A stretch of DNA of 64,000 nt from a virus. Positions within the stretch are counted from its first letter, which is position 1; each line of letters starts with the position of its first letter. The stretch lies in the IMG/VR virus record IMGVR_UViG_3300033143_008750, positions 1-64,000 of that record; one strand, given 5' to 3'. A program made the translations under genes and the position numbers. Positions 829-63,722 of the stretch are shown piece by piece. Below the pieces are notes generated by a model. The model saw nothing but the letters and a program-made list of their open reading frames with translations. It was not told where the DNA came from and did no database searches.

Positions 829-990
829 ATGATTAATTTAATTAAACACACATATAAATTTGATGATGAGACACAAACAGTATCTTATATACTTCAAGAT
901 GCTGATAATCGTCACTCAGTTGGACATCTAGTTAAAGAACATATTAAATGTCCAAAAGAATACGAAGATGCAAAATACGCTGGCAGATAA
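829..990 (+). CDS. Small hypothetical protein, paralogue of 1202..1360
   Basis: Read by hand (53 aa); shares HTxxFDDxxQT...EHIxCPKEY with 1202..1360; its stop overlaps the next ATG. Confidence 0.7.
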   Translation: MINLIKHTYKFDDETQTVSYILQDADNRHSVGHLVKEHIKCPKEYEDAKYAGR

Positions 991-1199
991 TGACATATAT
1001 TCTTAAAGTAAACAGTCAAGACTTGTACTTAGGTCCAGCTAGGGTTGGACAGATAAGAGGTCCGTTGGCTAATGCATTTGCATTTAACTCATATGATGAT
1101 GCGAACTGGCTAAGAAATAAGTTCGGATTAAAAACTAGATATAGCATAGAGTCTATAACTGACAAAGACTTGTTTACTGCAAGGTTGAAAGGTAAATAA
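990..1199 (+). CDS. Small hypothetical protein with C-terminal FxxxLKG motif
   Basis: ATG at 990 coupled to the upstream TAA; ends DKDLFTARLKGK. Confidence 0.7.
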   Translation: MTYILKVNSQDLYLGPARVGQIRGPLANAFAFNSYDDANWLRNKFGLKTRYSIESITDKDLFTARLKGK

Positions 1200-1201
1200 T
1201 T

Positions 1202-1360
1202 ATGAGTTCATACGTACATACATTTTCATTTGATGATAAAAACCAGACAATATGGTGCGTATATCGACATGCATATCATGGCAAGGCGATTGCCCGACGA
1301 ATCAGCGAACATATTGAATGTCCAAAAGAATATTTTAAACGAAAGTTGAAAGGTATATGA
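1202..1360 (+). CDS. Small hypothetical protein with C-terminal FxxxLKG motif
   Basis: Read by hand (52 aa); ends PKEYFKRKLKGI. Confidence 0.7.
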   Translation: MSSYVHTFSFDDKNQTIWCVYRHAYHGKAIARRISEHIECPKEYFKRKLKGI

Positions 1361-1587
1361 ATAAAGCATATTTTATAATCAAGGACGAAGGACGAGAAAA
1401 CCAGATGTATCATTGCTGGGGCAATGGCATGGGAAATCAACCTTGGACATTTAACATTTCAAAAGCAAATCACTGGCCTACTGATGAGGGGCCAAAATTT
1501 ATAACAGCAAATCAAGATTATATATCAATAAGTGTCGTAGCGATAACGAAAACGGAGTATTTTAAACGAATATTACAAGGTAAATGA
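1357..1587 (+). CDS. Small hypothetical protein with C-terminal FxxxLxG motif
   Basis: ATGA overlap; ends KTEYFKRILQGK. Confidence 0.75.
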   Translation: MNKAYFIIKDEGRENQMYHCWGNGMGNQPWTFNISKANHWPTDEGPKFITANQDYISISVVAITKTEYFKRILQGK

Positions 1588-1763
1588 TTAATTTTTTTAA
1601 AAATAGAAGGAAGAAAAAGTTTTTGAATCGCTTGAAATATGGACAGGATGAAAAACCTGTGTATACTACAGCAGCAATGACTGATGCCTTAATGATTGGA
1701 GATGAAGAAAAGGCAGAAATAATATTACATGAAATTATTAAGCGTAGGTTAAAAGATATATGA
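1584..1763 (+). CDS. Small hypothetical protein
   Basis: Read by hand (59 aa, MINFFKNRRKKKFLNRLKYG...HEIIKRRLKDI); ATGA overlaps on both sides. Confidence 0.65.
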   Translation: MINFFKNRRKKKFLNRLKYGQDEKPVYTTAAMTDALMIGDEEKAEIILHEIIKRRLKDI

Positions 1764-2008
1764 TACAAGAATTTTTCACAATGAGTTCAAACATTACTAT
1801 TATTATAGATCAAAATGCATTATCAAATGCTGATTATAATATATTTTTTGGAACTGGCGGCCCTGATGATCCTCTCGTAGCATTCTATGACAAAGAACGA
1901 TTGATTTCATCAGAACAATATAGTTATCACGGCAGATGGCGGGGCTGGAAGCACGAAGTAATCGAAAATGAGAAAGAATACTTTAGACGTAAGTTGAAAG
2001 GCAAATAA
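1760..2008 (+). CDS. Small hypothetical protein with C-terminal FxxxLKG motif
   Basis: Ends EKEYFRRKLKGK. Confidence 0.75.
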   Translation: MIQEFFTMSSNITIIIDQNALSNADYNIFFGTGGPDDPLVAFYDKERLISSEQYSYHGRWRGWKHEVIENEKEYFRRKLKGK

Positions 2009-2010
2009 GA

Positions 2011-2187
2011 ATGACTGAAAAAAAGAAATATTGGTTATCTGACTCTAACGATAAACACTATATATTTGAAGCAGAAAATGATAGAGAGGCTTTACGTTAC
2101 TTTTACGAATCAGGTGATCGCGCATATAAGTACGGAAGAGCAGATAAAGCATATTTTATAAAGAGATTAAAAGGTGAAGAAATATGA
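2011..2187 (+). CDS. Small hypothetical protein with C-terminal FxxxLKG motif
   Basis: Read by hand (58 aa); ends DKAYFIKRLKGEEI; overlaps the next start. Confidence 0.7.
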   Translation: MTEKKKYWLSDSNDKHYIFEAENDREALRYFYESGDRAYKYGRADKAYFIKRLKGEEI

Positions 2188-2915: not shown

Positions 2916-3055
2916 AATTCAACAAATGGATCCGCATCTAGTAGTATTGATGCAGTGGCTCAAAGATAATGACGAATCAGATGCGTCAAAGCGTGAACAT
3001 GCTAACCGTACCGGTCAGTATATTCCTGATTTGCTTGAAGACAGTTCGGATAACT

Positions 3056-3358
3056 ATGACTGAGGCCGAGAAAGCAAAATTCTTACGTAAGCTCCGTATC
3101 GGTAAACCGAAAGGCGGACACCTAGAACTATGGGGATCGCATTATTTCCATAACGGTCGATATTCTGGTATCATCACTGATGATCCTAGCGGTCGTTTTG
3201 AAGATGGTGATATTATTACAACATCACGGTGTGTTAAAATGCACAATATCGACAACGAAAAAATCTTAGAAACCGAACAAAGTTATTATACGTTAGGTTG
3301 CGAAGGCACATATGCTGATCGGGAAGATCACAACGAATTAGGAGATGAATATGAATAA
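3056..3358 (+). CDS. Conserved phage hypothetical protein
   Basis: Likely start ATG 3056; GRFEDGDIITTSR...ETEQSYYTLG pattern common in phage proteins. Confidence 0.65.
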   Translation: MTEAEKAKFLRKLRIGKPKGGHLELWGSHYFHNGRYSGIITDDPSGRFEDGDIITTSRCVKMHNIDNEKILETEQSYYTLGCEGTYADREDHNELGDEYE

Positions 3359-3620
3359 TATCACAAACACAGCAAATGCATCATGTTTTTGCGTAGGAAA
3401 ATTGCCAGGATGTACTTGCGGCGGCAGATGTCGTTGTGCATGTACTTGTCTTATAGACAAGTCGTTTGGAGGATCAGGTTGGATGACTGTAACTGACAAT
3501 CCCGACTTGATTTCTGAAGGTGGTACGGAAGAGATACACAAAACAAAGAGTGGCAAGGGCGCAGTCGGCCAAGCAATCGCAAAGGACAAGTTACGTAAAC
3601 TTCCACCGAACTGTTCGTGA
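3345..3620 (+). CDS. Cys-rich small protein (putative metal-binding)
   Basis: CFCVGKLPGCTCGGRCRCACTC; AGGAG RBS. Confidence 0.6.
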   Translation: MNMNNITNTANASCFCVGKLPGCTCGGRCRCACTCLIDKSFGGSGWMTVTDNPDLISEGGTEEIHKTKSGKGAVGQAIAKDKLRKLPPNCS

Positions 3621-4030
3621 AACTTCTCGACTATCATACTGTTACTGACAAAGACATTTTTCTTCTGAATCTACACGGAGAAGATGTTGAATTTAGCATG
3701 GTAGAAAATGATGACATGCCTACGTTCTTTCAAACATGTATGAAGCTTAATTTGTTAGACTTTATGTGTCAAAAAGAATACAGAGGCACACTTGCTACAT
3801 TCAAGATTGTTCGACCATTTATGTTTCGCATGAATCTTGGATATCGAGAATTTACGATTAATTTACTATCAAATGATTTATTGAACATCACTGAAATACT
3901 AATGGCACATGACTACTATCGTGAACCTGATCCAAATGTTAGTGGTTTTCGTTACCTCCACGAATTATATTTTGATTTCTCTAACGAACAAAGAAACAAA
4001 TCGTACAAGAGTTTTAACTATGAAATGTGA
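3617..4030 (+). CDS. Hypothetical protein, tandem family member 1 (N-terminal FxxxLxG motif)
   Basis: GTG start overlaps the upstream TGA; DKDIFLLNLHGE...FFQTCMKLNLL. Confidence 0.7.
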   Translation: MKLLDYHTVTDKDIFLLNLHGEDVEFSMVENDDMPTFFQTCMKLNLLDFMCQKEYRGTLATFKIVRPFMFRMNLGYREFTINLLSNDLLNITEILMAHDYYREPDPNVSGFRYLHELYFDFSNEQRNKSYKSFNYEM

Positions 4031-4415
4031 TTTTCGTAATGGCGAGTTATCAAAGAAAGTCTTGTTTAAATCAAGACTCTCGGGCGAACCGATTCATTTT
4101 GGTTTTATCCCTATATGGGAACTAAGAAAGTTTGTTAGGTACTGCTTAGAGAATAAACTCATAGCGCCGCTCGATCCATCAAACTCAAAAAATCCTTGGT
4201 ACACAGCAGATGTAAATTTTGTGTATGTATCGACATATTCACGGACAACTGTTTGGCCTATTGCGCAAATAATGACATGGCTTGCTGATCTACTTCGTGT
4301 AGAATTTGCAACTGGAGGGCTGTATCAATTACGAACTGCTCAACAAACGATTGATTGCGGGCCGGCCCACAGTGCAAGTCATTACGTAATCAGAAACAAA
4401 ATGTATATTTCATAA
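4020..4415 (+). CDS. Hypothetical protein, tandem family member 2
   Basis: Likely start ATG 4020; KKVLFKSRLSGE...FVRYCLENKLI. Confidence 0.7.
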   Translation: MKCDFRNGELSKKVLFKSRLSGEPIHFGFIPIWELRKFVRYCLENKLIAPLDPSNSKNPWYTADVNFVYVSTYSRTTVWPIAQIMTWLADLLRVEFATGGLYQLRTAQQTIDCGPAHSASHYVIRNKMYIS

Positions 4416-4786
4416 TGAACAAAGAATACAATTTTAAAGAATTTACTTACAAGGATATGTTTGAAATCAAACTCAAAGATGCTATTCCTAACTTTGGATA
4501 TATGTCGTGTTCTAAGAGAAGTAAATTCTTTAAGTTTTGCGTAGATGCAGGATTCATGGAGTTTTCAGGAGCATCATCACAAAGAAAGAGATATGCATAT
4601 ACTGTATTAGTTTCATTTATATACTCTGCAATGGGAAATTATCGTCCTACTGATGTAGAGTGTTATCAAGGACAAATAATAGTTATAGATAGTGCGTTTA
4701 GAGCCCGAGAAAAATTGAATAGTTCTTACGGTTTAGATATACACGAATTCTCGCTGCAACTACCAATTGAGTATAGTGATGCGTAG
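4415..4786 (+). CDS. Hypothetical protein, tandem family member 3
   Basis: TAATG coupling at 4413-4417; YKDMFEIKLKDA...FFKFCVDAGFM. Confidence 0.7.
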   Translation: MNKEYNFKEFTYKDMFEIKLKDAIPNFGYMSCSKRSKFFKFCVDAGFMEFSGASSQRKRYAYTVLVSFIYSAMGNYRPTDVECYQGQIIVIDSAFRAREKLNSSYGLDIHEFSLQLPIEYSDA

Positions 4787-5087
4787 TTCTAAGAGTAAAG
4801 ACGAATTTTTTCGCAAGATGAAAAAGAAGCCAGCCCAACAAGAGGTCTTGGATAATCTTGCTGATTACAGCATTGAACAACTGGAAAACTTGCGAGGCAA
4901 CGTATTCCCGAAATGGGTTCGACAAGCCCTTGTAAAGTGCAAAGAACAGGAACTGGAATTCATAGCTCGCGGCTGCAAAACACCTGAACAAGTCGCTACA
5001 GAACTTGCTATACGAATGACGAAAGCAAGTCTTGACAATGCGGAATGAGGCTGCTATAATAGTGGTCTAAAGAATAGGTAAATAGTC

Positions 5088-5591
5088 GTGAACAAGGAAG
5101 AATTCAAAGACAGGCTCGCTGGAAAGTTCTATAATTTAGAGATTGTAGACGATACACACAGCAGAGATACAAGTGAACCCGATCCTAACGATAGTTGGGA
5201 TAGGGCTAGCACGTATACAACTCATAACATTGAGGGCTTTAGAGCCGCTCCTGAGTCTGACGGAAAGTATTATGATATTGTAATTCCGTATGCTCCGCTA
5301 TTCGAGGAGTTGTATTATTTGCTATATGTTGTGTATTCGACAGGTGATAGCTTCGGACACGATGAAGGAAATAGCATTGAATACATCGGATTCTACAAGC
5401 CAAGTCAGCTACATATTGCGCAAGAAAATGAGCGCAAGATTTATGACTTTATGAAAAATGAAAATAGTAATAAATATTCTGTTAAGCTTAAAAGTCCTGA
5501 AGGCAAGGTGTTCGATCAATCTGTGCCTTGGAAAGGATATTTTGAGAGCATGGATACTATGGAAATCATAGAAATTGATAGGATGAACTAA
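5088..5591 (+). CDS. Conserved phage hypothetical protein
   Basis: Downstream of a TTGACA/TATAAT promoter (5032-5060); N-terminal KEEFKDRLAGK; YSTGDSFG motif. Confidence 0.75.
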   Translation: MNKEEFKDRLAGKFYNLEIVDDTHSRDTSEPDPNDSWDRASTYTTHNIEGFRAAPESDGKYYDIVIPYAPLFEELYYLLYVVYSTGDSFGHDEGNSIEYIGFYKPSQLHIAQENERKIYDFMKNENSNKYSVKLKSPEGKVFDQSVPWKGYFESMDTMEIIEIDRMN

Positions 5592-6596: not shown

Positions 6597-6760
6597 TGAT
6601 TAACTTTGAGAGTCCGTGCGTGAGTTTATGCGAGCTTGATGAAACAGGCGAAAATTGTATTGCTTGCAAGCGGACTCAAGAAGAAATTTTTAGTTGGATG
6701 ACTTATACACAAGACGAACGCAATAGAATAATACAAGAGGTCAGAACAAGAAAGCTATGA
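6596..6760 (+). CDS. DUF1289/YdhL-like small Cys protein
   Basis: Read by hand: SPCVSLCELDETGENCIACKRTQEEIFSW; TAATG coupling. Confidence 0.8.
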   Translation: MINFESPCVSLCELDETGENCIACKRTQEEIFSWMTYTQDERNRIIQEVRTRKL

Positions 6761-7164
6761 AAGAGAACAGGCCAAGGAAAGGTAATAAAATGCCACCTAA
6801 AAACAAAGACCTGCCTGAGCAAATCCGTAAGAGATTTGATAAAGTAGATTTAACATATGCTTATTGTCCTACAGGCTGGATTGATCTTGTTACTGAGTTA
6901 GATGAAAAACTTGCGGTTCTAGTGCCGCATTACAAGATTCGGCAAATCAAAGAGAAATTTGCTGGACTACGATATTACGTAGATGTACCTTTGTATGGAG
7001 ATGGTTCATCACGAAATCAAGCACACAACCTAATATCTGAGTATGAGAATAAATCATATTCTATATGCGATGTGTGTGGTGAACTTGGAAAAGAAACAAA
7101 CTTAACTGGCTGGATGGCTACACGCTGCGAAGCCCACAATACAAAGGAAAAAGCAGAGAACTAA
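6757..7164 (+). CDS. Conserved phage hypothetical protein
   Basis: GW..L...QIKEKFAGLRYY...CDVCG motif. Confidence 0.8.
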   Translation: MKENRPRKGNKMPPKNKDLPEQIRKRFDKVDLTYAYCPTGWIDLVTELDEKLAVLVPHYKIRQIKEKFAGLRYYVDVPLYGDGSSRNQAHNLISEYENKSYSICDVCGELGKETNLTGWMATRCEAHNTKEKAEN

Positions 7165-7524: not shown

Positions 7525-7553
7525 GTGTTGACAGAATCACATAAGGTGTTATA

Positions 7554-7937
7554 ATGATATACTTCATACAAGCAAAGCAGTATGTTAAAATTGGTTATTC
7601 TAAGAATCCCCAATATCGTTTAAAGAAAATGCAAACTGCTAATCCTGTAAAATTAAAATTGCTAGCTACTATGTCTGGTGATTGTAAAACTGAAAAGGGC
7701 TTGCATGAAGCATTCGAGAAAGCACATTATCGTGGAGAATGGTTCCGCTATAATGGCCCTTTAAAAGCTTCTATCATGGCATTTAAAGATAGCAATAACA
7801 AAATATTAATAGAAGATGTACGATCATTCCAACAGGCAGGATTACATCTTAAAGCAAGACAAAGGCTAAACAGATTAACGGCAAGCGGAAAACTTGACCA
7901 TAAATTTGTAAAGCAAATGAAGAAAGATTATAAATAG
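7554..7937 (+). CDS. GIY-YIG-superfamily protein (T5orf172/MUG113-like)
   Basis: IYFIQ..YVKIGYSKNPQYRL..MQTANP...E..LH..F....RGEWF. Confidence 0.85.
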   Translation: MIYFIQAKQYVKIGYSKNPQYRLKKMQTANPVKLKLLATMSGDCKTEKGLHEAFEKAHYRGEWFRYNGPLKASIMAFKDSNNKILIEDVRSFQQAGLHLKARQRLNRLTASGKLDHKFVKQMKKDYK

Positions 7938-7940: not shown

Positions 7941-8703
7941 TGTGCGTGAGACTATAAGCAATGGCAACATTGTGAATGCGGGGAATCCAACAATAACCGC
8001 GCCACCTCTTCGGAGAATGGTAACCCCACGCAAGCCGCGATTCAAACGGCTTCGCTAAGGCGGAGATACTTAGAACGCAAGGCAAAGGGACAGGTCATAC
8101 GCTGGGGCCAACGGTGAAGGCGGAGACTGGATGTTTAACAACATCTTACCTTTGTATGTCAAACTTGCTACTAAGGAGAATCAAATGGTAGTTGTTGTGT
8201 TCGAGTCTTAGCAGGCAAGGGCTATACAGCAGTTCGATAGTTAGCGGGAAATCCTACCGCGACTAGAAGAACAGTCGAAAGTATTCTTAGCCGAAGAAAC
8301 GACAGAAGGCGTGTTGCATTTTGTATTCCAAAAGAGTATGAAACAACAGGAGTAGCACATCTTCGTTGGTACACAATTAATAATGCTCAATGTGGGCATT
8401 TGTTTTAGGAACAAAATTTTGCAGGTTCAAGTCCTGCTATTAATTAAACGTAAAGACTGCTCCAATGTTAGACGGAAATGGCTTAATTCATCACTCTTCG
8501 GAGAATGGTGACTAACAGAAGCTCACAAGGTGGAAGTTAGTTTATGCAAATCTGCTATCGCCAGCGACTCATAAATCGGCAGCCATGTTGTTAGACTGTT
8601 TCGTAGCTTCGGCTTGGGGCAGTGGATAAGTTCTTAACCATCGGGGTTGTACCCAATGGGCAAGGGAGCGAAGGTAATAGCAGGTATGTGTAATCTCAGC
8701 ACA
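7941..8703 (+). ncRNA. GOLLD-like giant structured RNA (~760 nt)
   Basis: No credible + strand ORF; termini pair (TGTGC-G-TGAGA with TCTCA-GCACA); many GNRA/UUCG-capped hairpins; segments GTGTTGCATTTTG...AACAGGAGTAGCACATC, ACGTAAAGACTGC and 3' TAATCTCAGC match my recollection of GOLLD; TATAAATA late promoter at 7929-7936. Confidence 0.8.
8376..8445 (+). tRNA. Degenerate tRNA-like element embedded in the GOLLD-like RNA
   Basis: ATTAATA/TATTAAT acceptor, GCTC/GGGC D-stem, TTTGT/ACAAA anticodon stem with loop TT TAG GA, GCAGG-TTCAAGT-CCTGC T-arm; no U8, short D-loop, no CCA. Confidence 0.6.
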
Positions 8704-10264: not shown

Positions 10265-10365
10265 TAAACCATTGATTCCTAAAGGAATTTAAGTGTTGAC
10301 GCCACTTGACATAGTGGAAAAGCTACTGTATAATTATACTTGAGAATTAGGAAAAGGCTAAATTA
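10265..10365 (+). promoter_or_regulatory. Early sigma70 promoter cassette with IHF-consensus site
   Basis: TAAACCATTGATT (10265-10277); TTGACA 10306, 17-nt spacer, TATAAT 10329; leader TTGAGAATTAGGAAAA. Confidence 0.8.
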
Positions 10366-11730: not shown

Positions 11731-12075
11731 ATGAATCACCCACTTGACAAATATGCGGAAGATTTGCTGAAAGCTGCCGCCGAAGGTCCAGAAGGAATGG
11801 AGAATTGGCTCAAGGATTTGCAGAAAGAAGTCGGCGCTCCCGACGGACCCGAACTTCCTGATTCAATCGAAATCGAGTACGAAGACGGTACGAAAAAAAC
11901 GTTTGAAGTGCCGACGTTTTATAGTTTCGACAATCCTGCTCCGCAAGAGGTGATCGACAGTTGGAGCGAGGACGAGGATGAGTACTTTGACGGCGACGGC
12001 AACCAAATTAAGCCTTTCGATCACCAAATTCCAATCGTTGATCCTGACTTGCCACACGACGAGGACGAAGAATGA
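11731..12075 (+). CDS. Highly acidic hypothetical protein
   Basis: Very D/E-rich 114 aa ORF with GAGG RBS. Confidence 0.7.
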   Translation: MNHPLDKYAEDLLKAAAEGPEGMENWLKDLQKEVGAPDGPELPDSIEIEYEDGTKKTFEVPTFYSFDNPAPQEVIDSWSEDEDEYFDGDGNQIKPFDHQIPIVDPDLPHDEDEE

Positions 12076-12404: not shown

Positions 12405-12785
12405 ATGAATAATTATGAAAGCAAAGACGTATATACTCGCAGACGCGATGATCGAATATACGGATTATTTGCGAGGGTGTTTATCAGTCAAGGCGACAGA
12501 ATTTTCAGCATCAATGATGGTAATTATCAAGTAGATCCTGACTTCCGAACTATCCAAACGTATCAAGGACACTTCATACATCCTGACGGCATGTTCACGA
12601 ATCACTCTTGCGATCCGTCTGCGGCGGTCGATGCTTCAATTGGCGTATTGTACGCTTTGCGAGACATAAATCCTGATGAAGAAATCACGTTTGACTATAA
12701 CGAAAGCGAGTCAGACATTCAATCCAACTTTGACTGTAGCTGTGGCGCAGAGAATTGTGTCGGCAGAATCGGAGAGGACAAATGA
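12405..12785 (+). CDS. SET-domain protein-lysine methyltransferase with post-SET zinc motif
   Basis: GLFA, NHSCDPS, RDINPDEEITFDY and CSCGAENC motifs. Confidence 0.92.
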   Translation: MNNYESKDVYTRRRDDRIYGLFARVFISQGDRIFSINDGNYQVDPDFRTIQTYQGHFIHPDGMFTNHSCDPSAAVDASIGVLYALRDINPDEEITFDYNESESDIQSNFDCSCGAENCVGRIGEDK

Positions 12786-13110: not shown

Positions 13111-13139
13111 TTGACAATGCGGTAAAAAACACGTATAAT
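13111..13139 (+). promoter_or_regulatory. Consensus sigma70 promoter for the ligase operon
   Basis: TTGACA-17 nt-TATAAT. Confidence 0.85.
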
Positions 13140-44228: not shown

Positions 44229-44505
44229 TTTAATTTCCTCTTCTTATATCGAGAGCTACATTGCTCTACGAGTCAGTGGTCGTCGCTTTTCGAAAAACGA
44301 CTTACTGAACAGAATACTTTATCTGCAACGTTATTTATCATTATACTAAATAAAAGCATAGACACAAAGAAAAAGAAACCACTAAATGAATGGAAAGCCC
44401 AAACATACCTCAAAAGTAAGTAAAAAAATAAAAAGAAGATAAATACTTGCTGAAAGAGGTTGACAAATTGAGTTAACTCCGCTATAATACACGAGGATTA
44501 AACGA

Positions 44506-47672: not shown

Positions 47673-48222
47673 ATTACGCATTTCAAAAAACGGCATGCAC
47701 GAAGACTTTAACAAAGTCGCAGCTATCAAAGCTGTTCGACAGTTATGTGGAATTGGCTTGAAGGAAGCTAAGGATGCAGTAGAGGAAGCTATGACAGGTA
47801 CAGTTGTGGTCATAGCAGATTTAACTCCGCATTCTTCATCACAAATGTCTAGTCAGGATGCGCATGAAAATCTCCGCGCGCAAGGAATGGAATTGCTCAG
47901 AGGCACTTCTAAGACTGAATTTATTGTACAAGCAATTCGTGAATCTGCAAAGCTGGCCGCAGACGAAGAAGAAAATAATCTTGCAATCTTGCTCCTTGAC
48001 GTATTGCGTCAACACGAAATTGACGTAGCTGAAAAAGAAGAAAATTGGAGGATTGCGCAAGAACAAAACAAAATGAGAGCGCACAACGAAAAAGTACGCA
48101 GAGAGGAACAAGATAAAATCCGCGATCAGCAAGAGCGACGTTTTCAAGAATCGAGGAAACGTAAGCATGATGAAGAAGTAAACATAGGAGCATACCAACC
48201 ATCAGAGGATAGCTTTCGATGA
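47665..48222 (+). CDS. Ribosomal protein L7/L12 C-terminal-domain-like protein with a charged helical tail
   Basis: NKVAAIKAVRQLCGIGLKEAKDAVE. Confidence 0.8.
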   Translation: MSRLRISKNGMHEDFNKVAAIKAVRQLCGIGLKEAKDAVEEAMTGTVVVIADLTPHSSSQMSSQDAHENLRAQGMELLRGTSKTEFIVQAIRESAKLAADEEENNLAILLLDVLRQHEIDVAEKEENWRIAQEQNKMRAHNEKVRREEQDKIRDQQERRFQESRKRKHDEEVNIGAYQPSEDSFR

Positions 48223-48820
48223 AAGTCTATTACATAACAACCTTCGGAAATAACGTATTTTATGTTCACGCTCCGAGCGGCGAGGAAGCAATAGCGCATC
48301 TTGTTGAGCAGGTAACGAAATACTATTTCAAGCACAATCTTAAAGGCGACGATGTTGCTACGCCGCCAACAACACTTGGAAAAAATATCATTGTCGAATT
48401 AGGAATGCACAAAAGTATTATTACTGACAAGGATATAGTTGCTGAGGATGTAACTGCGGTTGCATACATATTTTCATCTGCTGGCAAACCTTATTGGAAG
48501 GATTGGGATTTATCAGTTAGCAATGTATTACAAGACGCATAATGTATATCGTCGGACAAGCACGTAATCCTGAGGATGACAACGACGCTGATCGTTGGAC
48601 ACTTGAAATACACAGGGTGTCAGATACAGACATAAATGATATTGAGCATTACTGTTGCATAGAGATACACGAAGATACACTTGATTTGTGTTTGTTGAAA
48701 GCTAAAATCATCTGCAATGTCTTTAATGACAAAGGATTTGTAGGTGCAGAAACAATGGTCAAGAAATTGAATTCAGAACAGAAAAATATACCACAAATTT
48801 AACTAAGAAGTGAGATCCAC

Positions 48821-52150: not shown

Positions 52151-52378
52151 AATTTGTGTGATCCGTTTGGGGATCGGTAGAGCACCTAGACGAAGATTGT
52201 GCAGTCACTTCTTGTTAACATTGTTGATATGAATACTGCCAAAATTTGTAAACGACTGGCTCATAAGTCCAACACTTATGATGAACGTCGGTGGATGGCT
52301 ATTAGTTTGCTAAATAGTTCAGCTAGGATGGGGACTTCGGGTGGGGAATTCGAGGGCACAGACACATACAAGGCAAAT

Positions 52379-53080
52379 ATGGCATATACGAAAAAGATTA
52401 AAAAAATAATAGACGATGGCATAATTACTTATATCAACGATTACGGAATAGATCCTGAACATCGCGAAATCTATCTATTTCCAAGAGAAGAATACATGTA
52501 CGGCGGCGGCGACGAAGGCCTCGCAGAACCAGGCGTCGAATTCAGTCTCGCAAATCAATTCATCCGCAACATCAGAATCTTATCAAATATCTCACCTGAT
52601 CCTATTCTCATACACCTAAAATCTTGTGGTGGAGAATGGCACGAAGGTCTTGCGATGTATCAAGCAATCAAAGCTTGCAGATGCCACGTAACAATCCTAA
52701 ACTATGCAAGCGCACGTAGCATGAGCAGCATCATATTCTCAGCAGCAGATCATCGTGCAATGATGCCATTTTCAACATTTATGATTCACACAGGTACTCT
52801 GGTGCTACTCGGCACAGGCACACAAATTCAAACTGAATATGAAGAAGCTAAGAAAGCAGATAAAATTATGCTTGATATTTACGTTGACTTACTCAAAGAA
52901 TCTGAACTAATGAAAAGCTGGACACGTAAACGTATTAACACATGGCTTGTCAAGAAAATGAAAGACAAAGAAGAGGTCTACTTCACAGCAGAAGAAGCAG
53001 TAGAGCATAATTTTGCAGATACGATCTTCGGCGCCGACGGAACCTACGACTGGAGTGCATTAACTAATTCCTCCACATAA
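52379..53080 (+). CDS. ClpP-like serine protease
   Basis: PI.I.L.S.GG...G..MY, A.SMSS (Ser), FMIH (His), YF.AEEAV...FAD.I; likely start ATG 52379. Confidence 0.85.
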   Translation: MAYTKKIKKIIDDGIITYINDYGIDPEHREIYLFPREEYMYGGGDEGLAEPGVEFSLANQFIRNIRILSNISPDPILIHLKSCGGEWHEGLAMYQAIKACRCHVTILNYASARSMSSIIFSAADHRAMMPFSTFMIHTGTLVLLGTGTQIQTEYEEAKKADKIMLDIYVDLLKESELMKSWTRKRINTWLVKKMKDKEEVYFTAEEAVEHNFADTIFGADGTYDWSALTNSST

Positions 53081-54940: not shown

Positions 54941-55402
54941 ATGAAAATTGGATTCACAGGAACACAGACAGGAATCACTCCTCCGCAGTTTGACTTACTT
55001 GTAGAAGTGTTGCAAGAGCTCCACGAAGTCACAGAAGCGCATCACGGAGATTGTCTTGGTGCTGATAGAGAATTTTCTATAATTGTTGATTGTATTTTCG
55101 GTACCGGTAAGATACATTGTCATCCTCCAGAGGACGGTAAGAAACGAGCATTTTGCAGAGTAGATGTAATGTATGAGGCTCTTCCGTTCTTGGTTCGTAA
55201 TCATAATATCGTAAATAAAACAGATATATTGATTGCTTGCCCGAAAGGAATGAATGAAGAAGTACGATCAGGAACATGGGCAACAGTACGATTTGCACGA
55301 AAGCAGAAAGGCATCATTGTAATCCTTTGGCCAGATGGTAAATACACATATGAGGAACATAAAATTCCTACTTACCCAGATGAGGACGTAGATGAGGATT
55401 AA
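54941..55402 (+). CDS. SLOG (DprA/Smf-YspA-like) nucleotide-binding protein
   Basis: IGFTGT, HHGDC.GAD, RN..IV...D.LIA.P and SGTW.TVR.A motifs. Confidence 0.8.
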   Translation: MKIGFTGTQTGITPPQFDLLVEVLQELHEVTEAHHGDCLGADREFSIIVDCIFGTGKIHCHPPEDGKKRAFCRVDVMYEALPFLVRNHNIVNKTDILIACPKGMNEEVRSGTWATVRFARKQKGIIVILWPDGKYTYEEHKIPTYPDEDVDED

Positions 55403-55674
55403 AGCAAGAGCAAGCTTAGATCGTTTGAAAACGATGAAAAACAAGAAACGAAAGTTTGTTGCAACATCAGAATTAGATCGTGAGACTTGGATTGAATGTG
55501 ATGTATCAGAAACAAAAATCGGTCTCAGGAATACAGCGACAACAAATCGCTACATTGAATTGATTGCATGGACTAACAAAGCAGCAATAGGAAGATACAC
55601 AAGAGTAGATGGATCGTTTTGGTTTGAAAACGAAAAAGATGCATTTAAATTTAAGTTGAAGTGGGGCGAACCCG

Positions 55675-56034
55675 ATGGCAAATAACAGACGACCACAAGC
55701 GCCGAAGCGCAGAAATTTTGTAGCGAAGAATGCTAATAAGGTTCATCGTCCGCAGACTTTCCGCGACCGTACCAAGTATGATAGGTACGAGGATTATTTG
55801 AGCGATCAACTTGACGATTATATTGCTGACATTGAGCCTGTCGGAGATGTAATGAGCAAGGAAGAATTTGTAGCAAAAATCTCAGGAGAAGAATACGATC
55901 CTGACATGCGCAAAGATTATGAAGATTGGCTTGCCGCACAGAACGATGGCGGTACAGAAACGTGGGAAGATTACACCGACGATTACACCGATGATGATTT
56001 TGCTGACGAAAGATTTGATGATTATGACTACTAA
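55675..56034 (+). CDS. Basic N-terminus (ArfA-like pattern) with acidic C-terminal tail
   Basis: RNFVAKNANKVHRPQTFRDRTKYDR followed by a D/E/Y-rich region. Confidence 0.5.
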   Translation: MANNRRPQAPKRRNFVAKNANKVHRPQTFRDRTKYDRYEDYLSDQLDDYIADIEPVGDVMSKEEFVAKISGEEYDPDMRKDYEDWLAAQNDGGTETWEDYTDDYTDDDFADERFDDYDY

Positions 56035-56897: not shown

Positions 56898-57059
56898 GCT
56901 AACCTACTGATTATCTCAACAAGTGGAAATGTAGTGGTTGACAAACCGCCTATAGGCGTGTATTATACTCATGTAAGCTAAATACTAGTACGAGAAAGGT
57001 GGACTTTCTCAAGCAGCAAGGGATTCTTGCAGCAAGCAGACGATACGGAGGGTATCGAA

Positions 57060-58133
57060 GTGAGTGAAAGAAAATACGATTTAGCCGTGTTCATCGGCCG
57101 TATGCAGCCCTTACACAACGGGCATGTACAAAACATCCAAAACGCCCTCGAAATTGCAGACAATGTTCTGGTTATCGTAGGCTCAGCAAATCAACCCCGT
57201 ACTCCCAGAAATCCGTTCACGGTAAATGAACGTGCTGAAATGATATATTCAGTTTTCGGCGAAGATTGTGACCGTGTACAAGTCGAAGGAGTTGAAGATT
57301 ATTACCCTGACGCACTCTGGCTCAAAGATGTCCAGACTGTAGCGCACAAGCACATTATCGGCGCGGATATAGAACACTTTACTGATGCAAAAGTAGCAAT
57401 TCTCGGCCACGACAAAGATCACACAAGTTTCTATCTGAATGAGTTTCCTACCTGGGATTTCATTGAGATTGGTCATCGACTTCGACAAGCAAAGTTTCCT
57501 AGAATTATTGATGCGACTAACATTCGCAATGCATATTTCGACGGTGATTTCGACCACATTGTCGATCAAATTCCAGCAGAAGTTTCTGCCTTCATGCAGA
57601 AATTCTACAAAACTCCAAAATACAATATGCTTGTTGAAGAACAAGCATACATCACTCGTTACAAAGAAGAATGGTCAGCAGCACCTTATGCGCCAACTTT
57701 CGTAACGACTGACGCAGTTGTTGTACAAAGCGGCCACGTACTTTTAGTCAAAAGACGCACCGCACCTGGAAAAGGTCTTTGGGCACTCCCAGGCGGCTTT
57801 TTGAATCAAACTGAACGTTTAGAAGATGGCGTGATTCGCGAGCTACGTGAGGAAACAAAATTGAAAGTTCCCGTCAAAGTCTTAGAGGGCAGCATACAGC
57901 ACAAGCACACGACAGTATTTGATGCGCCTAACAGAAGCTTACGGGGCCGCACAATCACAAACGCATTTCTCATTGATCTTGCTGCGCAGCCTAAGCTGCC
58001 TAAGGTCAAAGGCGCTGACGATGCAGAAGAAGCCAAATGGTTTCCTCTAAATGTAGTTGACGCAATGGGAAGTATTCTTTTCGAAGATCACAAGCTAATC
58101 ATCCAAACGATGGTTGCGAAGTTGGAGAACTAA
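57060..58133 (+). CDS. nadM: Bifunctional NMN adenylyltransferase / Nudix hydrolase (NadM-Nudix)
   Basis: FIGRMQPLHNGH, GSA....T.RNPF...ER and Nudix box GG.....E......RELREET; likely GTG start at 57060. Confidence 0.93.
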   Translation: MSERKYDLAVFIGRMQPLHNGHVQNIQNALEIADNVLVIVGSANQPRTPRNPFTVNERAEMIYSVFGEDCDRVQVEGVEDYYPDALWLKDVQTVAHKHIIGADIEHFTDAKVAILGHDKDHTSFYLNEFPTWDFIEIGHRLRQAKFPRIIDATNIRNAYFDGDFDHIVDQIPAEVSAFMQKFYKTPKYNMLVEEQAYITRYKEEWSAAPYAPTFVTTDAVVVQSGHVLLVKRRTAPGKGLWALPGGFLNQTERLEDGVIRELREETKLKVPVKVLEGSIQHKHTTVFDAPNRSLRGRTITNAFLIDLAAQPKLPKVKGADDAEEAKWFPLNVVDAMGSILFEDHKLIIQTMVAKLEN

Positions 58134-58135: not shown

Positions 58136-58973
58136 GTGGAATTCGGCGATAAAGTATTTGTAGTAACCTCTGATAAAGTTGTTGAAGGAACAATATGTCA
58201 TCACATTTCTCACAGAGGAGTTGTGACAGGATACTCAGTTCGCAGCGAAGAATTACAGTCATTCCCAGAGACTACAAATTTTGCAAAGAGAAGCATTTTT
58301 GTTGACGAGAAAGACGCGAACAAAGCACTATTCAAGAAAAAATTGAAGGCAGACAAAACAATAGTAATACCTGCCTCAGACAAAGTAGGTGACAGGCACT
58401 GGATAACAGCCCACAAAAGAGGCGCGCACAGATAATGAATAAAGGTGACACAGTATTTGTAATTCATCACTCGCAAAACGTTTTTTCTGGCGTACTCGGT
58501 GATGAGGTTGACGCAGGAGCACAAGGATTTTATACTCGCTGGGGTTCAGGACACATGATTTATTTTCGTACAGGGGCCATTTCAGGGCCTGAATCAGTAA
58601 CAACAAGTCTTTACAGCGATGAAAATATTTTCTGCACAAAGGACGCTGCGAAAAAAGAAATATTTATGAGAACCTTACGCTGGCCACGATTGAGAAATAT
58701 AGCATGAAATTTCCAATTGATACTAAAGTATATGCAATCTTCGGCGGCAAGGTTCATATGTCATACGTGAGAGCGCAGAGCAGGCAGTACAAAGAATTTA
58801 TGAGACTTCATTTGTTTGCTAAAATAACAGTGATTAATGAACACGATGTTCCGATGATTATTGACTTACATCCAGATGATGTTTACAAGGACAAAGTAGT
58901 AGCACAAAAAGTTTTATTTGAAAGAAGATTGAGAGGAATTCCCGAAAACACAAGATATGAATTGGAGGATTGA
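58136..58973 (+). other. Three small KOW/SH3-like genes (58136..58435, 58435..58707, 58704..58973) between the NAD genes
   Basis: GD.VFV-like N-termini; [IV][FY]..K..A.K.[LI]FxxxL near the C-terminus. Confidence 0.72.
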
Positions 58974-59211: not shown

Positions 59212-60744
59212 ATGAGCATTATTCAAGAAATTAGAGAAACATACGGAGTAGCTGGTGACACAGATAGCTACAAATTCTCACACCCTGACCAGTATCCAGT
59301 AGGAACGACCAGGTTGATGAGTCACATTTTTGCACGAGGCAGTACAAAAGGTGCAGACGGCCTTCCGCTGTTTACGAAAGTGCAGTGGGCTGGAATGCAG
59401 CTAGTAATCAAAGAGCACCTCGACCGTCAGTTGACGCACAGGCAGGTTGACAACCTTATTGCTTTCCAAAGAGAACACATGTTCGGACTTGAACTAAATG
59501 CACTGGAAGTTGCACTTCGCGCAGTAGTTGACGATTACCTCGGCTACATGCCTGTCAGGATCCGCGCAATTCAGGAAGGTCTGGTCGTTCCGATCGGTCA
59601 AATCCTTGCTACAGTTGAAACTACTGTAGAAGATGCGCGTGTAATTGCACTAACAACGTATATCGAAACAATGATTATGCGTGTCTGGGCACCTACAACA
59701 GTTGCAACAACATCCTACCACATCAAAGAAATCATTTACGATGGTTTGCTGAAATCAGCAGATGAGCCAGATTTTGAGATCCCGTTCAAGCTACATGACT
59801 TCGGTTCTCGCGGTGTGTCAAGCATGGAGAGCGCAGCATTCCTTGGCGCAGCACACTTGTTCAATTTCCAAGGCAGTGACACGACAGTTGGTGTTATGGC
59901 AGCAAACATCGGGTACCATTCTGATATGACTGGCCGCAGCATCTTTGCTACGGAGCACAGCACAACGACAACGTTTGGTCGTTACGGCGAAGAAGCATTT
60001 GTTAAGCAGGTGTTTTCCAAGGCTGCAAAGCCAGGCGCGATCTTTGCTACAGTAATAGATAGTTACGATCCTATTAACTTTGTTGATGTTATCGCACCGA
60101 AGTTCAGGGATCGCCTACGCAAATCAGGTGCAACATGGGTGCTTCGTCCAGACAGTGGTGATCCTGTCATCACACCAGTAGAAATGGTACGCAGGCTTGC
60201 AAAAACATATGGATTCACTTACAATAGTAAGGGCTACAAGGTTCTTGACAACGTGCGTGTACTCCAAGGCGACGGCATTGATATTAACGATGTTAGAGCA
60301 ATCATTAACCTGCTACTTGAAGAAAACTGGAGCATAAGCAACATTGCTTTTGGAATGGGTGGTGGTCTGTTACAGAAGAACAACAGAGACACGCTCAAGT
60401 TTGCAATGAAGGCTTGCGCAAGGTATGAAGATGGTCAATGGATCGACGTTTACAAAGATCCTATCATTTACGACGCAACGACCTGGGAACCAATTAGCTC
60501 TAGCTTCAAGAAATCAATGGCTGGACGCTTAGAGTTGGTTCACAACGAGGTAACTGACGACTACAAAACCGTACGCATTGAGGAAGTTAACGACTACGTA
60601 GTACAGGGTTACAAGCCAATGCTTGAGACGGTTTGGGATGCAGGCGAACTCATACGCGATATGACTATGGATCAGGTGCGTGAAAACGCTAAACTTCCAG
60701 CAGAACGTATTGCAATTGAGAAAGTAGTAGCCGAAACTGCCTAA
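59212..60744 (+). CDS. nadV: Nicotinamide phosphoribosyltransferase (NAMPT)
   Basis: DTDSYK.SH..QYP, KLHDFGSRG, ATEHS, DSYD, RPDSGDP, QGDG and FGMGGGLLQ motifs. Confidence 0.95.
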   Translation: MSIIQEIRETYGVAGDTDSYKFSHPDQYPVGTTRLMSHIFARGSTKGADGLPLFTKVQWAGMQLVIKEHLDRQLTHRQVDNLIAFQREHMFGLELNALEVALRAVVDDYLGYMPVRIRAIQEGLVVPIGQILATVETTVEDARVIALTTYIETMIMRVWAPTTVATTSYHIKEIIYDGLLKSADEPDFEIPFKLHDFGSRGVSSMESAAFLGAAHLFNFQGSDTTVGVMAANIGYHSDMTGRSIFATEHSTTTTFGRYGEEAFVKQVFSKAAKPGAIFATVIDSYDPINFVDVIAPKFRDRLRKSGATWVLRPDSGDPVITPVEMVRRLAKTYGFTYNSKGYKVLDNVRVLQGDGIDINDVRAIINLLLEENWSISNIAFGMGGGLLQKNNRDTLKFAMKACARYEDGQWIDVYKDPIIYDATTWEPISSSFKKSMAGRLELVHNEVTDDYKTVRIEEVNDYVVQGYKPMLETVWDAGELIRDMTMDQVRENAKLPAERIAIEKVVAETA

Positions 60745-60751
60745 ACTGAAC

Positions 60752-60783
60752 GGGACGGTGCTCACATAGCATCGTCCCTTTCT
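60752..60783 (+). terminator. Rho-independent terminator
   Basis: GGGACGGTGCT-CACAT-AGCATCGTCCC-TTTCT. Confidence 0.75.
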
Positions 60784-61036
60784 TAGGAGAAAAGTAATGA
60801 CTGTTTATCAATTATTGATAGAAAATATGACAACGCTAGGCCACATGGGTTCTAGCCCGACAACTATTTCTCGTAATCTTTACTCTAGTCTTGGCACAGC
60901 ACAGGCTCATGCCAAACTTAATTACCAGAAAGATATTATTTGGACGAAATTGGGAGCGATGTCTTGGTCAAGTGGTGATCTTATACATGTTATGTACACA
61001 ATCCGAGCAATCGAAGTTATTGATTGAGAGAACAAC

Positions 61037-61747
61037 ATGAAATATACATTCACACCTAATATAAGAACAGTTGCTCAATTCAAACCTGTATGGACAACTG
61101 ACATTATCAAAAACGAACCGATGATGTTTTCAGCCGATCCTGCATTTGCGCATACACACGGTCGCTCTCTAACTAGAGAGATTACAAGAATGTTGCTCCA
61201 CAGCAAAGAATACAAAGAAATTGTAATGTTTGCACCGCAAGATGATTTTTTCACAGTAATCGACACCCGCGTTACTATGACGATGAAGGGCATGTATCCT
61301 TCAATCCCAGGATGGCACTGTGATGATATACCTCGCAGCAGAACAACAGGCCAGCCCGTGTTGCACGGTGTCAATCCGTTTGTACAACATTTCATGGTGA
61401 TTCTCTCCGATCAGGAAAGCACAGTCTCCGCTACGGAATTTCTAAATATGACGGTTGAGCTAGACATTGACCTTGCAAACGTATGGCAGAGCGTAGACCA
61501 TGGAATCAACGAGAGAATGGATACTTATCGTATACACCAGAAAGAAACTGATAACCATATGAATCCAATGACGAGCTTTATCAAACCAGGTGACATTGTT
61601 CGATTCAATCAGGAAGCGATTCACAGAGCCTCTCCGACAATCACCCCAGGATGGCGATTCTTCTACAGACTCAGCATAACGCACAGAAAGCCCGCTAACG
61701 AAGTCCGAAATCAAGTACAGGTGTATGCATCAGAAAATGGTTGGTAA
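61037..61747 (+). CDS. 2OG-Fe(II) dioxygenase-like protein
   Basis: PGWHCD (HxD), distal HRAS His and R.F.R 2-oxoglutarate-binding pattern. Confidence 0.7.
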   Translation: MKYTFTPNIRTVAQFKPVWTTDIIKNEPMMFSADPAFAHTHGRSLTREITRMLLHSKEYKEIVMFAPQDDFFTVIDTRVTMTMKGMYPSIPGWHCDDIPRSRTTGQPVLHGVNPFVQHFMVILSDQESTVSATEFLNMTVELDIDLANVWQSVDHGINERMDTYRIHQKETDNHMNPMTSFIKPGDIVRFNQEAIHRASPTITPGWRFFYRLSITHRKPANEVRNQVQVYASENGW

Positions 61748-61794
61748 GAGCTTAGAGGAGCTTACAGACGGTCATATAATTTTTGACCCCTCTG

Positions 61795-62049
61795 CAACCG
61801 CTTGATTTCATTGAGGTTTCTGATACCTGAATAGAGGAAAAGGTCTGTTATAGACTGACTGATACACTGACCTGCCTTGCGATCAATTAAAACGTAAGTT
61901 ATTGATTGTATTACAATGAACCGTAATAAAATCAACGACTTAAGTGCAAAAATTAATTCTAACTGACTGATATCCTTAGGATTAAAGATTTGACTTTTTC
62001 CTTCCACATCTGTATAATTTACTTAACGATCAGGAAACAGGACAACACT
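61795..62049 (+). promoter_or_regulatory. Early promoter cassette with multiple IHF-consensus sites
   Basis: Sites at 61795, 61895, 61930 (opposite orientation) and 61960 (1 mismatch); TTGACT 61990-17-TATAAT 62013. Confidence 0.78.
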
Positions 62050-62439
62050 ATGTCGATTACCAAAGCAAGTCTCCCGCAAATTCGCAAAGACATTAATGCT
62101 GCACTCGCAACAATCGAAAAAAAGCATAATCTCAGATTCAGTATCGGCGCCATCACGTATGAGGTAGGCGCAAGCTTACGCACGAAGCTTGAAGCAGTAT
62201 CGACTGCTGACCATACAGGCAACGCGATCAATCCTGACAAAATCAAATTCGAAAAGAATGCTTGGAGAGTTGGCGTGAAGAAAGACGCTTTCGGCCAAAC
62301 GTTTACGTCGAATCGCAAGCACTTCACGATTACGGGACTCAACACTCGCGCTCCGAAATATCCCATTCAAGCAGTAACGGCCAGTGGAAAGCGTTACAAG
62401 TTTCCAGTGAGCCATCTTCCTTCTAGCCTGCAAGCTTAA
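62050..62439 (+). CDS. Early hypothetical protein
   Basis: ATG 62050 after AGGA RBS; ITGLNTRAPKYPI...GKRYKF. Confidence 0.75.
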   Translation: MSITKASLPQIRKDINAALATIEKKHNLRFSIGAITYEVGASLRTKLEAVSTADHTGNAINPDKIKFEKNAWRVGVKKDAFGQTFTSNRKHFTITGLNTRAPKYPIQAVTASGKRYKFPVSHLPSSLQA

Positions 62440-63722
62440 TAATGCCTAGCATTTCACCGCTCTCTAGTTTGAATAACGACGCCGATGTCCTCAGGGATCT
62501 TCGGCGTCGTGTTAGAGAAATGAAAGCCGCAGAAAAGGATAGTAAACAAGGATATAGTGCTTGCATCAAATTCTATGAACGAATTCTAGAATGCGTCCCT
62601 GACATAGACTATGAGAGCATTTATCGCGCCGCTGCCGCAGGCGTTACTATGCGCAATACTGAAATTGATCGTTTGCAAAGAATCATTTATGACAATGTTC
62701 CTAATGCAGTAGAACTAATAAATGAAGCTCCGCAAGCGTTAGGACGCAATGTAGTGAGGGAACACGAACTTAAACTCAAAACGTTTAAGAATAAATTGAA
62801 AGATGGAGATTAACAATGAAAATCACAGATTGTAAGGATTTTGAGGACGATGATTCGACTGTAACTGTGAGAACTATTCTCGGAGTAACTTCTGAGGGTT
62901 GCGGAGTTATAGAACGCGAATTTGAGTACGAGGATGAGGATGAGAACAGCAGGACTTTCGGCGAAACATTGACGGGTCTTGAAACAATCCTCGAAATGGT
63001 TGATCTTGACGAGCAGGTTCTTCGCACGTTGGAGGAACTTTCGGAAGAGATTACCGCAGACGATTTAACTCTGGTTGAGGACGAATAACATGGCTAAGAA
63101 AACCCCGACAGATGTACGCGGGTATATCTATGAAGTAGGCCAAGAGATTGCAATGGCTAAAAGTTCGTACAGCATGGCCTCAGGCGCTCATGTAGAGATT
63201 CGTACAATATCAAAGGTCGATGGTGAAAAGGTCTATGTTGCAGGTTCAAACGGAACTGGCAATTACTGGCTCAGAAATCACGACAATGCAGCTATTTTGG
63301 ACTAATCATGTCTGATTATTATAATACAATCGGCCAGCGGTTCGAAAAAGAAAAGAACGCCCTCGTTCCGAAGCGCGACTACATAGACGGTCATCCTCTT
63401 GAGGATAAGATTCGTAGAATCGTATTCAAATCTGGCCTCAAGTACCCAAATCACGATGCCGCAGGACAATTCAATCTCAAAATACAGACTGCAATCAGAA
63501 CTATCACATCTAAAACGTATTCAGATATGTTCGGCGCGATCAAGTACACAGCAAATGAAATATTATGCGGCGAAGAGGTTGAACAGCATCTTGACTACAT
63601 TTTTGCAGAACTGGAAGAATATCAAAAAGACGTTAAAGCATTGGTTCTCAAGCATATTAAGGAATTGCAAGACTTGTAGAATTGTGCTATACTAAATACA
63701 TCCATTGATTGGAGAAACAGAC

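Follow-up and report, generated by a model that had tools for sequence, protein, structure and literature searches.

Introduction

Several described systems bring unrelated proteins to one place through a short peptide at the end of the chain. Encapsulin cargo-loading peptides and the capsid targeting sequence of phage T4 dock unrelated proteins on a phage-type shell or scaffold, the T4 signal being N-terminal only, cut by the prohead protease and borne by cargo that is packed into heads. Sliding-clamp-binding peptides and ClpX-type signals are short linear motifs at the termini of unrelated proteins that compete for one hub, usually as unstructured tails, and the membrane helices of MinD, FtsA and MreB are terminal, short and basic, with Phe and Leu spaced i, i+4. 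Here we describe a motif of about 13 residues that about 30 small proteins encoded in IMG/VR virus record IMGVR_UViG_3300033143_008750 carry at their N or C end, and that may be a docking helix. The DNA analysed, referred to throughout as the window, comprises the first 64,000 bases of this 72,565-base record. Among the closest known kinds are the encapsulation peptides of bacterial microcompartments, 15-20-residue helices that unrelated cargo proteins bear at one terminus, N or C, as a common address; as the passages of the source that deal with them put it, these helices are amphipathic, lack sequence conservation and are joined through a poorly conserved linker (PMC4594438).

The small early proteins of phages are mostly without assigned function and are usually studied singly. 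A reading of the window from its letters alone (the sequence-only reading) had proposed that one terminal motif is common to about 30 of its small proteins, and the analysis reported here followed up that proposal. A search of the open-access full-text literature turned up no account of a motif of this kind common to phage early proteins, a result that depends on the wording used.

A conserved motif at the ends of small proteins

All 30 peptides of the sequence-only reading, 19 of them C-terminal and 11 N-terminal, are present in plus-strand frames, although the coordinates it attached to them are the starts of the carrier genes and not the positions of the motif. Its pattern, [KE]x[YILVM]Fxx[KR]LxG, fits 10/30 of the peptides as written, against 0.02 expected; the observation itself is confirmed. 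The motif spans about 13 residues with the consensus T-x-K-[ED]-[YLIV]-F-K-[RK]-[KR]-L-[KR]-G. In an alignment of 30 motif segments (A7), Phe is found in 30/30, Leu at +4 in 29/30, Lys at -3 in 24/30 and Gly at +6 in 20/30, with Lys or Arg at +3 in 21/30 and at +5 in 19/30. The Gly of the C-terminal copies lies 0-13 residues before the stop (27 in gene 58136), and N-terminal copies have their Phe at residue 6-19. Gene calls were made with a simple caller written for this analysis (144 in the window, nearly all on the plus strand, densely packed and with frequent stop/start overlaps), and the N-terminal motif positions are backed by database homologs that share the start residue.

The confinement of the motif to protein ends was assessed against shuffled proteins. 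With 300 within-protein shuffles, the strict pattern has 10 sites against a mean of 0.02, and 10/10 are terminal. The core F...L.G occurs 28 times in the window (shuffle mean 4.23); 22 of these sites lie 25 residues or fewer from a protein end, where the shuffles give 1.3, whereas the 6 internal sites compare with a mean of 2.9 and are reached by 30/300 shuffles. Shuffles that keep the composition of the ends (25-residue zones, 72.5 kb record) yield 1.65 terminal sites against 23 observed, and 0/500 reach that number. The enrichment at the termini of proteins under 200 residues that the sequence-only reading had proposed to test for is thus borne out, as is the absence of the motif from recognisable enzymes and large proteins: across the whole record 23/23 terminal sites fall in the 139 proteins below 200 residues and 0 in the 26 proteins of 200 residues or more. 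A chance origin of the motif is excluded.

Carriers span 50-233 residues, and none of 30 carriers has a Pfam family above cut-off, nor do the products of genes 62442, 55392, 65118 and 48219. Beyond the peptides listed earlier, we found copies at the C end of gene 55392-55685 and, outside the window, at the N end of gene 65118-65426, together with an internal look-alike in gene 48219-48542.

Since the motif always adjoins a gene boundary, it could in principle be the by-product of a nucleotide signal at the junction, namely the next gene's ribosome-binding site, a promoter or a recombination linker. The codons for Leu-Lys-Gly in array A, TTGAAAGG, would suit such an origin, as they contain AAGG 5-7 bases before the next ATG. 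Codon choice contradicts it, and we regard its probability as negligible. Between groups, positions with identical residues use the same codon in 648/1613 cases (0.402), against 0.406 predicted by genome codon usage, so that conservation is at the level of the amino acids rather than the nucleotides, in agreement with the sequence-only reading; Phe is encoded by TTT 24 times and TTC 11 times, Leu by all six codons and Gly by GGT 6, GGC 7 and GGA 6 times. Moreover, N-terminal copies are found 15-55 bases into the gene, where a junction signal would serve no purpose, and the strict pattern has 0 matches in the three minus-strand frames. Within groups the same-codon rate is 0.516 against 0.408 expected, an excess of the kind expected after duplication.

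Sharing of the motif between carrier families

BLAST joins some of the carriers to one another, namely genes 829, 1202 and 1760; 4020 and 4415; 18248, 30129, 30482 and 30829; 18836, 19056 and 19267; and 25805 and 26083, and much of the BLAST signal between carriers is the motif itself. With 17 residues masked, the 33 carriers still fall into 29 clusters by phmmer (E up to 0.01). Alignments allow a looser grouping, in which a G-D-x-V-x-V start is common to the arrays at 18.6-19.8 kb (array D) and 58.1-59.0 kb, and a P-x-F-G block follows the motif in the products of genes 3617, 4020 and 4415.

The motif of one group nevertheless recognises that of others. A weight matrix built from five array A copies finds 19 sites in other proteins at a once-per-proteome threshold and 10 at 0.1 per proteome, nearly all of them terminal, and matrices from the other three groups give 8, 10 and 11 matches. 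Comparison of family profiles with hhalign aligns 19 columns of A6 with A5 (probability 92%, E 6e-7) and 21 columns of A4, an N-terminal family, with A5, a C-terminal family (83%, E 8.5e-6); nothing but the motif is aligned between the families. The profile of family C, the group of gene 18248, comprises four sequences and gave weak results in both of its comparisons, at less than 4% probability. Within A5 (16 sequences) the Phe, Leu and Lys are the sole invariant or near-invariant columns other than the start. The description of the carriers as otherwise unrelated therefore stands in so far as the families share only the motif in profile comparison, but it has to be tempered by the tandem arrays and by the carriers that BLAST joins.

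Conservation in relatives

Homologs of the carriers were found in metagenomes only. For gene 4020-4415 there are 19 homologs (42-89% identity); in their alignment F16 and L20 are invariant, and the motif with the block next to it is best conserved. Synteny with the left end of the window is seen in the metagenome contigs L027 (89%), L029 (44%), L028 and L030-L032, whose orthologs bear the motif at the corresponding ends. Further copies occur in these contigs, for example in two array-A-type genes and one barrel-type gene of L029. Over 20 ortholog pairs, the ten-residue core is identical at 143/200 positions (71%) and the rest of the protein at 830/1816 (46%), with Phe and Leu kept in 20/20.

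The barrel family, to which gene 19056 belongs, retrieves 12 proteins at E up to 0.001 when its profile is compared with 1.84 billion representatives. Ten of the 12 were examined (72-107 residues), and nine have a motif-like tail; P0023, which matches gene 15955, is without the motif. Family C (A1) has 104 homologs, 91 of which possess F...[LI] in the last 35 residues while most of the other 13 have Met or Tyr for Phe, and no relative of this family was found in the viral contigs, in contigs G001-G004 or in the genome contigs.

Two cases bear on whether the helix belongs to the fold of its carrier. Among 43 homologs of gene 5088-5591, 27 have the N-terminal helix, with 15-21 residues preceding the first strand, and 16 more distant ones do not; 15 of these start 1-9 residues before the strand, and P0073 has an unrelated 22-residue extension. 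As judged from these homologs, the predicted helix is a module separable from the domain in this family. Loss of the motif in the L029 ortholog of gene 5088 was considered and rejected: the ortholog is split by a frameshift at 6740-6830, between the motif and the remainder, and the motif is present in another frame, which points to a frameshift or an assembly error. The second case is gene 829-990, a paralog of gene 1202-1360, which has Glu and Tyr in place of Phe and Leu, a variant conserved in L027. Preservation of this tail with Glu and Tyr suggests that Phe and Leu are not needed for that fold.

Searched with a model of A7, the close kin G001 and G002 show 3 matches apiece. At an E cut-off of 0.05 the same model has 0 in PA5oct, RpAliso, fHe-Yen9-01, two contigs of about 410 kb, G003, G007 and G008, a blank that is soft because the search has a coarse first filter which can miss short matches (0-1 candidates passed). 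Contigs G002-G004 show background F...L.G counts, and we take them to be mainly late or structural regions. Loci near distant homologs of genes 16248, 31532 and rIIA (L005-L008, L022-L026) have no motif-like terminal copies. Among the records searched the motif is, on these comparisons and allowing for the soft blank, restricted to this lineage.

Predicted structure and chemistry of the helix

That the motif is helical, as the sequence-only reading supposed, is supported by two AlphaFold2 models built with family alignments, in both of which it forms a terminal helix. For the product of gene 19056-19274 the prediction is five strands and then the motif, as a C-terminal helix spanning residues 59-71 (mean predicted local distance difference test score 81.8). 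In the model of gene 4020-4415 an N-terminal helix at residues 8-21 coincides with the motif and is followed by a strand, a helix and further alpha/beta structure (mean score 75.7). The first model resembles SH3-like barrels (Tudor, KOW, NdhS, PWWP; Foldseek probability 1.0, E about 5e-3, template-modelling score about 0.6) and, with VIA, a PWWP domain (Z 8.1, root-mean-square deviation 5.0, 66 residues aligned), a level of likeness that the tool rates as common. The second had no structural match in Foldseek or VIA (best Z 3.5). Searches of the PDB by sequence with alignments A1, A2 and A3 returned nothing significant, the best being bL19 at E 0.055 (A2), and the ESM Atlas gave no usable lead. 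In the models, the same residues are thus placed on the terminal helix of two domains with different predicted architectures.

The helix often starts after Thr, Ser or Ala and ends at Gly. Its net charge is +2.4 over 12 residues and its mean hydrophobicity 0.15. The hydrophobic moment averages 0.29, compared with 0.27 over all proteome 12-mers (90th percentile 0.45), and only 2-3 residues per 12 are hydrophobic. Of the amphipathic helix with basic flanks that had been proposed, the basic character is confirmed and the amphipathic character is weak. These values bear directly on the possibility that the motif is a membrane-targeting amphipathic helix of the MinD/FtsA type. It is terminal, short, helical and basic, has two or three large hydrophobic residues, and the core spacing of the MinD tail resembles that of the motif. 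However, a basic and not notably amphipathic helix argues against a membrane anchor, and anchors tolerate any bulky hydrophobic residue, whereas Phe and Leu are nearly invariant here. A membrane hub, one of those put forward in the sequence-only reading, is accordingly very improbable.

Positions of the motif copies

All copies are on the plus strand. At the left end of the window, C-terminal segments are located at 1143-1196 (gene 990-1199), 1304-1357 (gene 1202-1360, which fits the strict pattern), 1531-1584 (gene 1357-1587), 1952-2005 (gene 1760-2008) and 2125-2181 (gene 2011-2187). Within this series, gene 1584-1763 carries an N-terminal segment at 1590-1646, with its Gly one residue later and an ortholog in L029, and the variant tail of gene 829-990 occupies 949-987. 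N-terminal segments follow at 3059-3106 (gene 3056-3358), 3629-3685 (gene 3617-4030), 4035-4091 (gene 4020-4415, described above), 4430-4486 (gene 4415-4786, in which Asp replaces the Gly present in the L029 and L028 orthologs) and 5091-5129 (gene 5088-5591).

The second group of C-terminal segments comprises 18536-18592 (gene 18248-18598, family C), 18790-18846 (gene 18595-18849), 19010-19060 (gene 18836-19063, which ends at the Gly), 19221-19271 (gene 19056-19274, the modelled barrel), 19459-19512 (gene 19267-19515, with Tyr for Gly) and 19721-19777 (gene 19508-19789). N-terminal segments then recur at 22004-22054 (gene 22001-22261), 24987-25043 (gene 24963-25283), 25814-25870 (gene 25805-26083), 26086-26136 (gene 26083-26355) and 29137-29181 (gene 29134-29421, with Ile for Leu).

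Three further members of family C carry C-terminal segments at 30432-30482 (gene 30129-30485), 30770-30826 (gene 30482-30829, Lys replacing Gly) and 31126-31182 (gene 30829-31218, which runs 13 residues past the Gly). The remaining C-terminal segments lie at 46960-47016 in the largest carrier (gene 46351-47052, 233 residues), at 55614-55670 in gene 55392-55685, at 58633-58689 (gene 58435-58707) and at 58887-58943 (gene 58704-58973, kept in G001 and P0024), while that of gene 58136-58435, at 58301-58357, is the one set 27 residues from the C end. A weak C-terminal copy in gene 62442-62813 (62775-62804) stands outside A7 and was missed by the A7 model. The internal look-alike of gene 48219-48542 is at 48315-48347, with its Phe at residue 37/107, and is kept in the G001 ortholog.

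Genomic context

CheckV puts the completeness of the record at 32% and that of the kin contigs at 11-21%, and the record accordingly represents only part of the genome of a giant phage. PHROGs identifies rIIA and rIIB in the window, and a Pfam scan that covered 80 proteins of the record found PTH2, a MUG113/T5orf172 domain protein, a SET-domain protein, an ATP-dependent DNA ligase, an Fe-S assembly protein, a staphylococcal-nuclease-like protein, a protein with a segment of the ribosomal L12 C-terminal domain, a ClpP-family protein and a GH108 lysozyme. Nicotinamide adenine dinucleotide (NAD) salvage is represented by a nicotinamide mononucleotide (NMN) adenylyltransferase-Nudix fusion (57027-58133) and a nicotinamide phosphoribosyltransferase (59212-60744), and three motif carriers lie between the two. 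Cultured relatives are remote on present comparisons: rIIA finds only distant kin in the phage collection by tblastn, all below 60% identity and the best cultured one PA5oct-like (46% over the first 293 residues). Megablast of 30-50 kb against that collection gave 0 matches, and a CCA-enzyme query found nothing in the viral-contig collection. IMG/VR labels the record 'provirus', and no integrase or bacterial flank was seen in the annotated parts.

Near-consensus sigma-70-type promoters (TTGACA, 16-18 bases, TATAAT) stand in intergenic gaps throughout the window, with perfect examples at 5032-5060, 7528-7555, 10306-10334, 13111-13139, 26461-26489, 31215-31244 and 44460-44488, most of them 17-32 bases upstream of a gene start. 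The phage apparently relies on strong host-type promoters across the whole region. Some carrier arrays have no such promoter directly upstream. The presence of these promoters at the fronts of gene blocks suggests that the small genes behind them, including those of the carriers, are probably early genes read by the host polymerase.

Early expression would also suit a turnover tag, that is, a terminal degron that hands early proteins to an AAA+ protease and so limits their action to early infection. Protease recognition signals do occur at either end of unrelated proteins, and among the genes of the window is one for a ClpP-family protein (52199-53080; Pfam CLP_protease, PF00574, E 1.2e-17). 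On the other hand, ClpX-type tags are read at the extreme protein end, whereas the phage motif lies at a variable 0-27 residues from it. No unfoldase or adaptor gene is present among the 80 Pfam-scanned proteins, and nothing ties the ClpP gene to the carriers, so we consider a degron improbable. The ClpP-family gene adjoins rIIB and the GH108 lysozyme, and its start is uncertain (GTG 52199 or ATG 52379).

A second enzyme in the window invites a more speculative proposal. The 126-residue SET-domain protein at 12405-12785 (PF00856, E 2.1e-11) is a possible lysine methyltransferase, and the motif could be the substrate or recognition site of such a phage enzyme, with the near-invariant Lys at -3 (24/30 copies) as its target. 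The array D models are similar to Tudor, chromo and PWWP barrels, a set that contains readers of methyl-lysine. Yet the case is built on co-occurrence in one contig, the barrel likeness is generic for SH3-like folds (Z 7-8) and no conserved aromatic cage is visible in A5, and the idea has in our view only a slight chance of being correct.

The 185-residue protein encoded at 47665-48222 matches the C-terminal domain of ribosomal protein L7/L12 over residues 16-42 (PF00542, E 1.2e-8, above cut-off), and a ribosomal-stalk segment in a phage protein is unusual. The start of gene 65118-65426 resembles it by eye and has no Pfam match. Mimicry of L7/L12 helix 4 by the motif, a possibility prompted by this gene, was rejected, as hhalign gives A7 against the 47665 protein a probability of 0.1% and the 65118 product has no Pfam L12 match.

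Several small proteins of the window are very acidic, with net charges of -11 to -27: those of 31261-31542, 55675-56034, 62816-63088 (-24) and 11731-12075 (-27). Two have acidic-aromatic C-terminal tails and three are encoded directly downstream of motif carriers. Judging by their composition, such small acidic phage proteins may be partners of the basic helix.

Other features of the window include two tRNA-Leu genes on the plus strand, both with anticodon TAG (737-821 and 8375-8446, ARAGORN), and a Cys-rich protein of 89 residues with C-x-C and C-x-x-C runs (3351-3620), which is kept in L027, L028 and L029. Three large proteins (34358-36634, 36710-39985 and 41104-42672) have a segment of about 100 residues in common (BLAST 30-35% identity, E 3e-7 to 5e-4) and no Pfam or PHROG family. 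The sole clear minus-strand gene, 43596-44228, encodes 210 residues with weak PHROG matches to baseplate wedge and head closure proteins (E 1e-5 to 1e-3), and the contig end resembles, by eye, the N terminus of a tail-sheath protein.

Discussion

We tentatively favour, with a confidence that falls a little short of even, the reading that the motif is a docking helix specific to this lineage, its binding in trans and its partner being what we infer. In this model the motif would be a separate alpha-helical module of about 13 residues with a Gly cap, kept by selection at the extreme N or C end of about 30 small proteins of one uncultured giant-myovirus lineage. The invariant Phe and Leu, set among Lys and Arg, would bind a single partner common to the carriers, and the basic character of the helix suggests that this partner would probably be an acidic protein surface or a nucleic acid. 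Docking would then gather a variety of small phage proteins at one site.

Several points weigh against this reading. The definition of the motif followed inspection of the same data, and the A7 model search by which its distribution was charted is lossy, having overlooked a copy within the record itself, at 65118. If about 30 proteins competed for one site, their partner would have to be very abundant. Many carriers stand in tandem arrays and are probably old paralogs, so that part of the sharing is descent. The helix also abuts its domain without a linker: in the model of gene 4020 a strand begins 3 residues after the Gly, and in that of gene 19056 the helix begins 2 residues past the last strand. 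In addition, the PWWP and chromo-barrel matches align through the helix, as far as residue 72 of the 19056 model, so that packing of the helix on its own domain may be all that is involved.

The last three points are the substance of the main alternative, which we think unlikely but take seriously and in which the helix is a structural cap inherited by descent. The carriers would be very old tandem paralogs of which the helix is the most constrained and the sole recognisable part, and shifts of start and stop at tight gene junctions would have transferred it between neighbours, from the C terminus of one gene product to the N terminus of the following one. In its favour, the arrays have overlapping stops and starts, some members are joined by BLAST, array D and the 58 kb array have the G-D-x-V-x-V N-terminal pattern in common along with the helix, PWWP and chromo-barrel folds carry a C-terminal helix on the barrel, and the raised same-codon rate within families is what recent duplication predicts. 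Against it, the two models differ in the layout of their secondary structure and yet have the same residues at the same helix positions, and packing on different surfaces should not keep Phe in every copy of A7 and Leu in all but one. Profile comparison finds nothing past the motif, the 5088 domain does without the helix in more than a third of its homologs, and the paralog 829-990 tolerates Glu and Tyr where Phe and Leu would stand. It is the near-invariance of these two residues on two predicted domains, the presence or absence of the module and this 'dead' variant that, taken together, lead us to favour a function in trans over packing in cis.

A bolder form of the docking-helix reading is that the motif, as a capped basic helix of the form K-x-hydrophobic-F-x-x-basic-L-x-G, is a sequence-defined address tag that a giant-phage lineage has evolved for itself, placed at either protein end and recruiting at least 30 fast-evolving early proteins to one hub, which may be the ribosome, the nucleoid, an acidic phage protein or a phage-made condensate. 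We hold this to be possible though rather doubtful. A ubiquitin-like C-terminal Gly, suggested by the three carriers that end at Gly, was considered and rejected, as the N-terminal copies and the longer tails do not fit it.

Should the docking-helix reading be true, about a fifth of the genes of the record would possess one docking helix, a single peptide pull-down could locate the whole repertoire, and the helix could also serve as a portable tag. More generally, enrichment at protein ends offers a way to discover short linear motifs in phage 'dark matter'. If the motif were an address tag, it would be a viral counterpart, for host take-over, of the targeting peptides of microcompartments and encapsulins.

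Comparison with known systems

Among the 80 Pfam-scanned proteins of this record, which is a fragment (see the CheckV estimate above), there are no microcompartment shell genes. The phage motif resembles the encapsulation peptides, as far as these are characterised in the passages cited in the Introduction, in being a short helix at either terminus of otherwise unrelated proteins. It departs from them in being strongly conserved, basic, not notably amphipathic by its hydrophobic moment and linker-free, and its carriers are small proteins in presumed early gene blocks rather than enzymes. With the encapsulin and T4 peptides it has in common that a short terminal peptide recurs on unrelated proteins. 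Unlike the T4 signal, it is found at both ends (at least 19 copies are C-terminal), its genes follow sigma-70-like promoters and it has no evident cleavage site. The sliding-clamp and ClpX motifs differ from it in consensus, and the phage motif is a predicted capped helix beside a domain. The membrane helices of MinD, FtsA and MreB come close in position, length, charge and the i, i+4 spacing of Phe and Leu, whereas in the phage motif hydrophobicity and hydrophobic moment are at the background of the proteome. Considered by analogy, the motif shares the logic of terminal targeting and docking peptides, being short, terminal and present on unrelated carriers.

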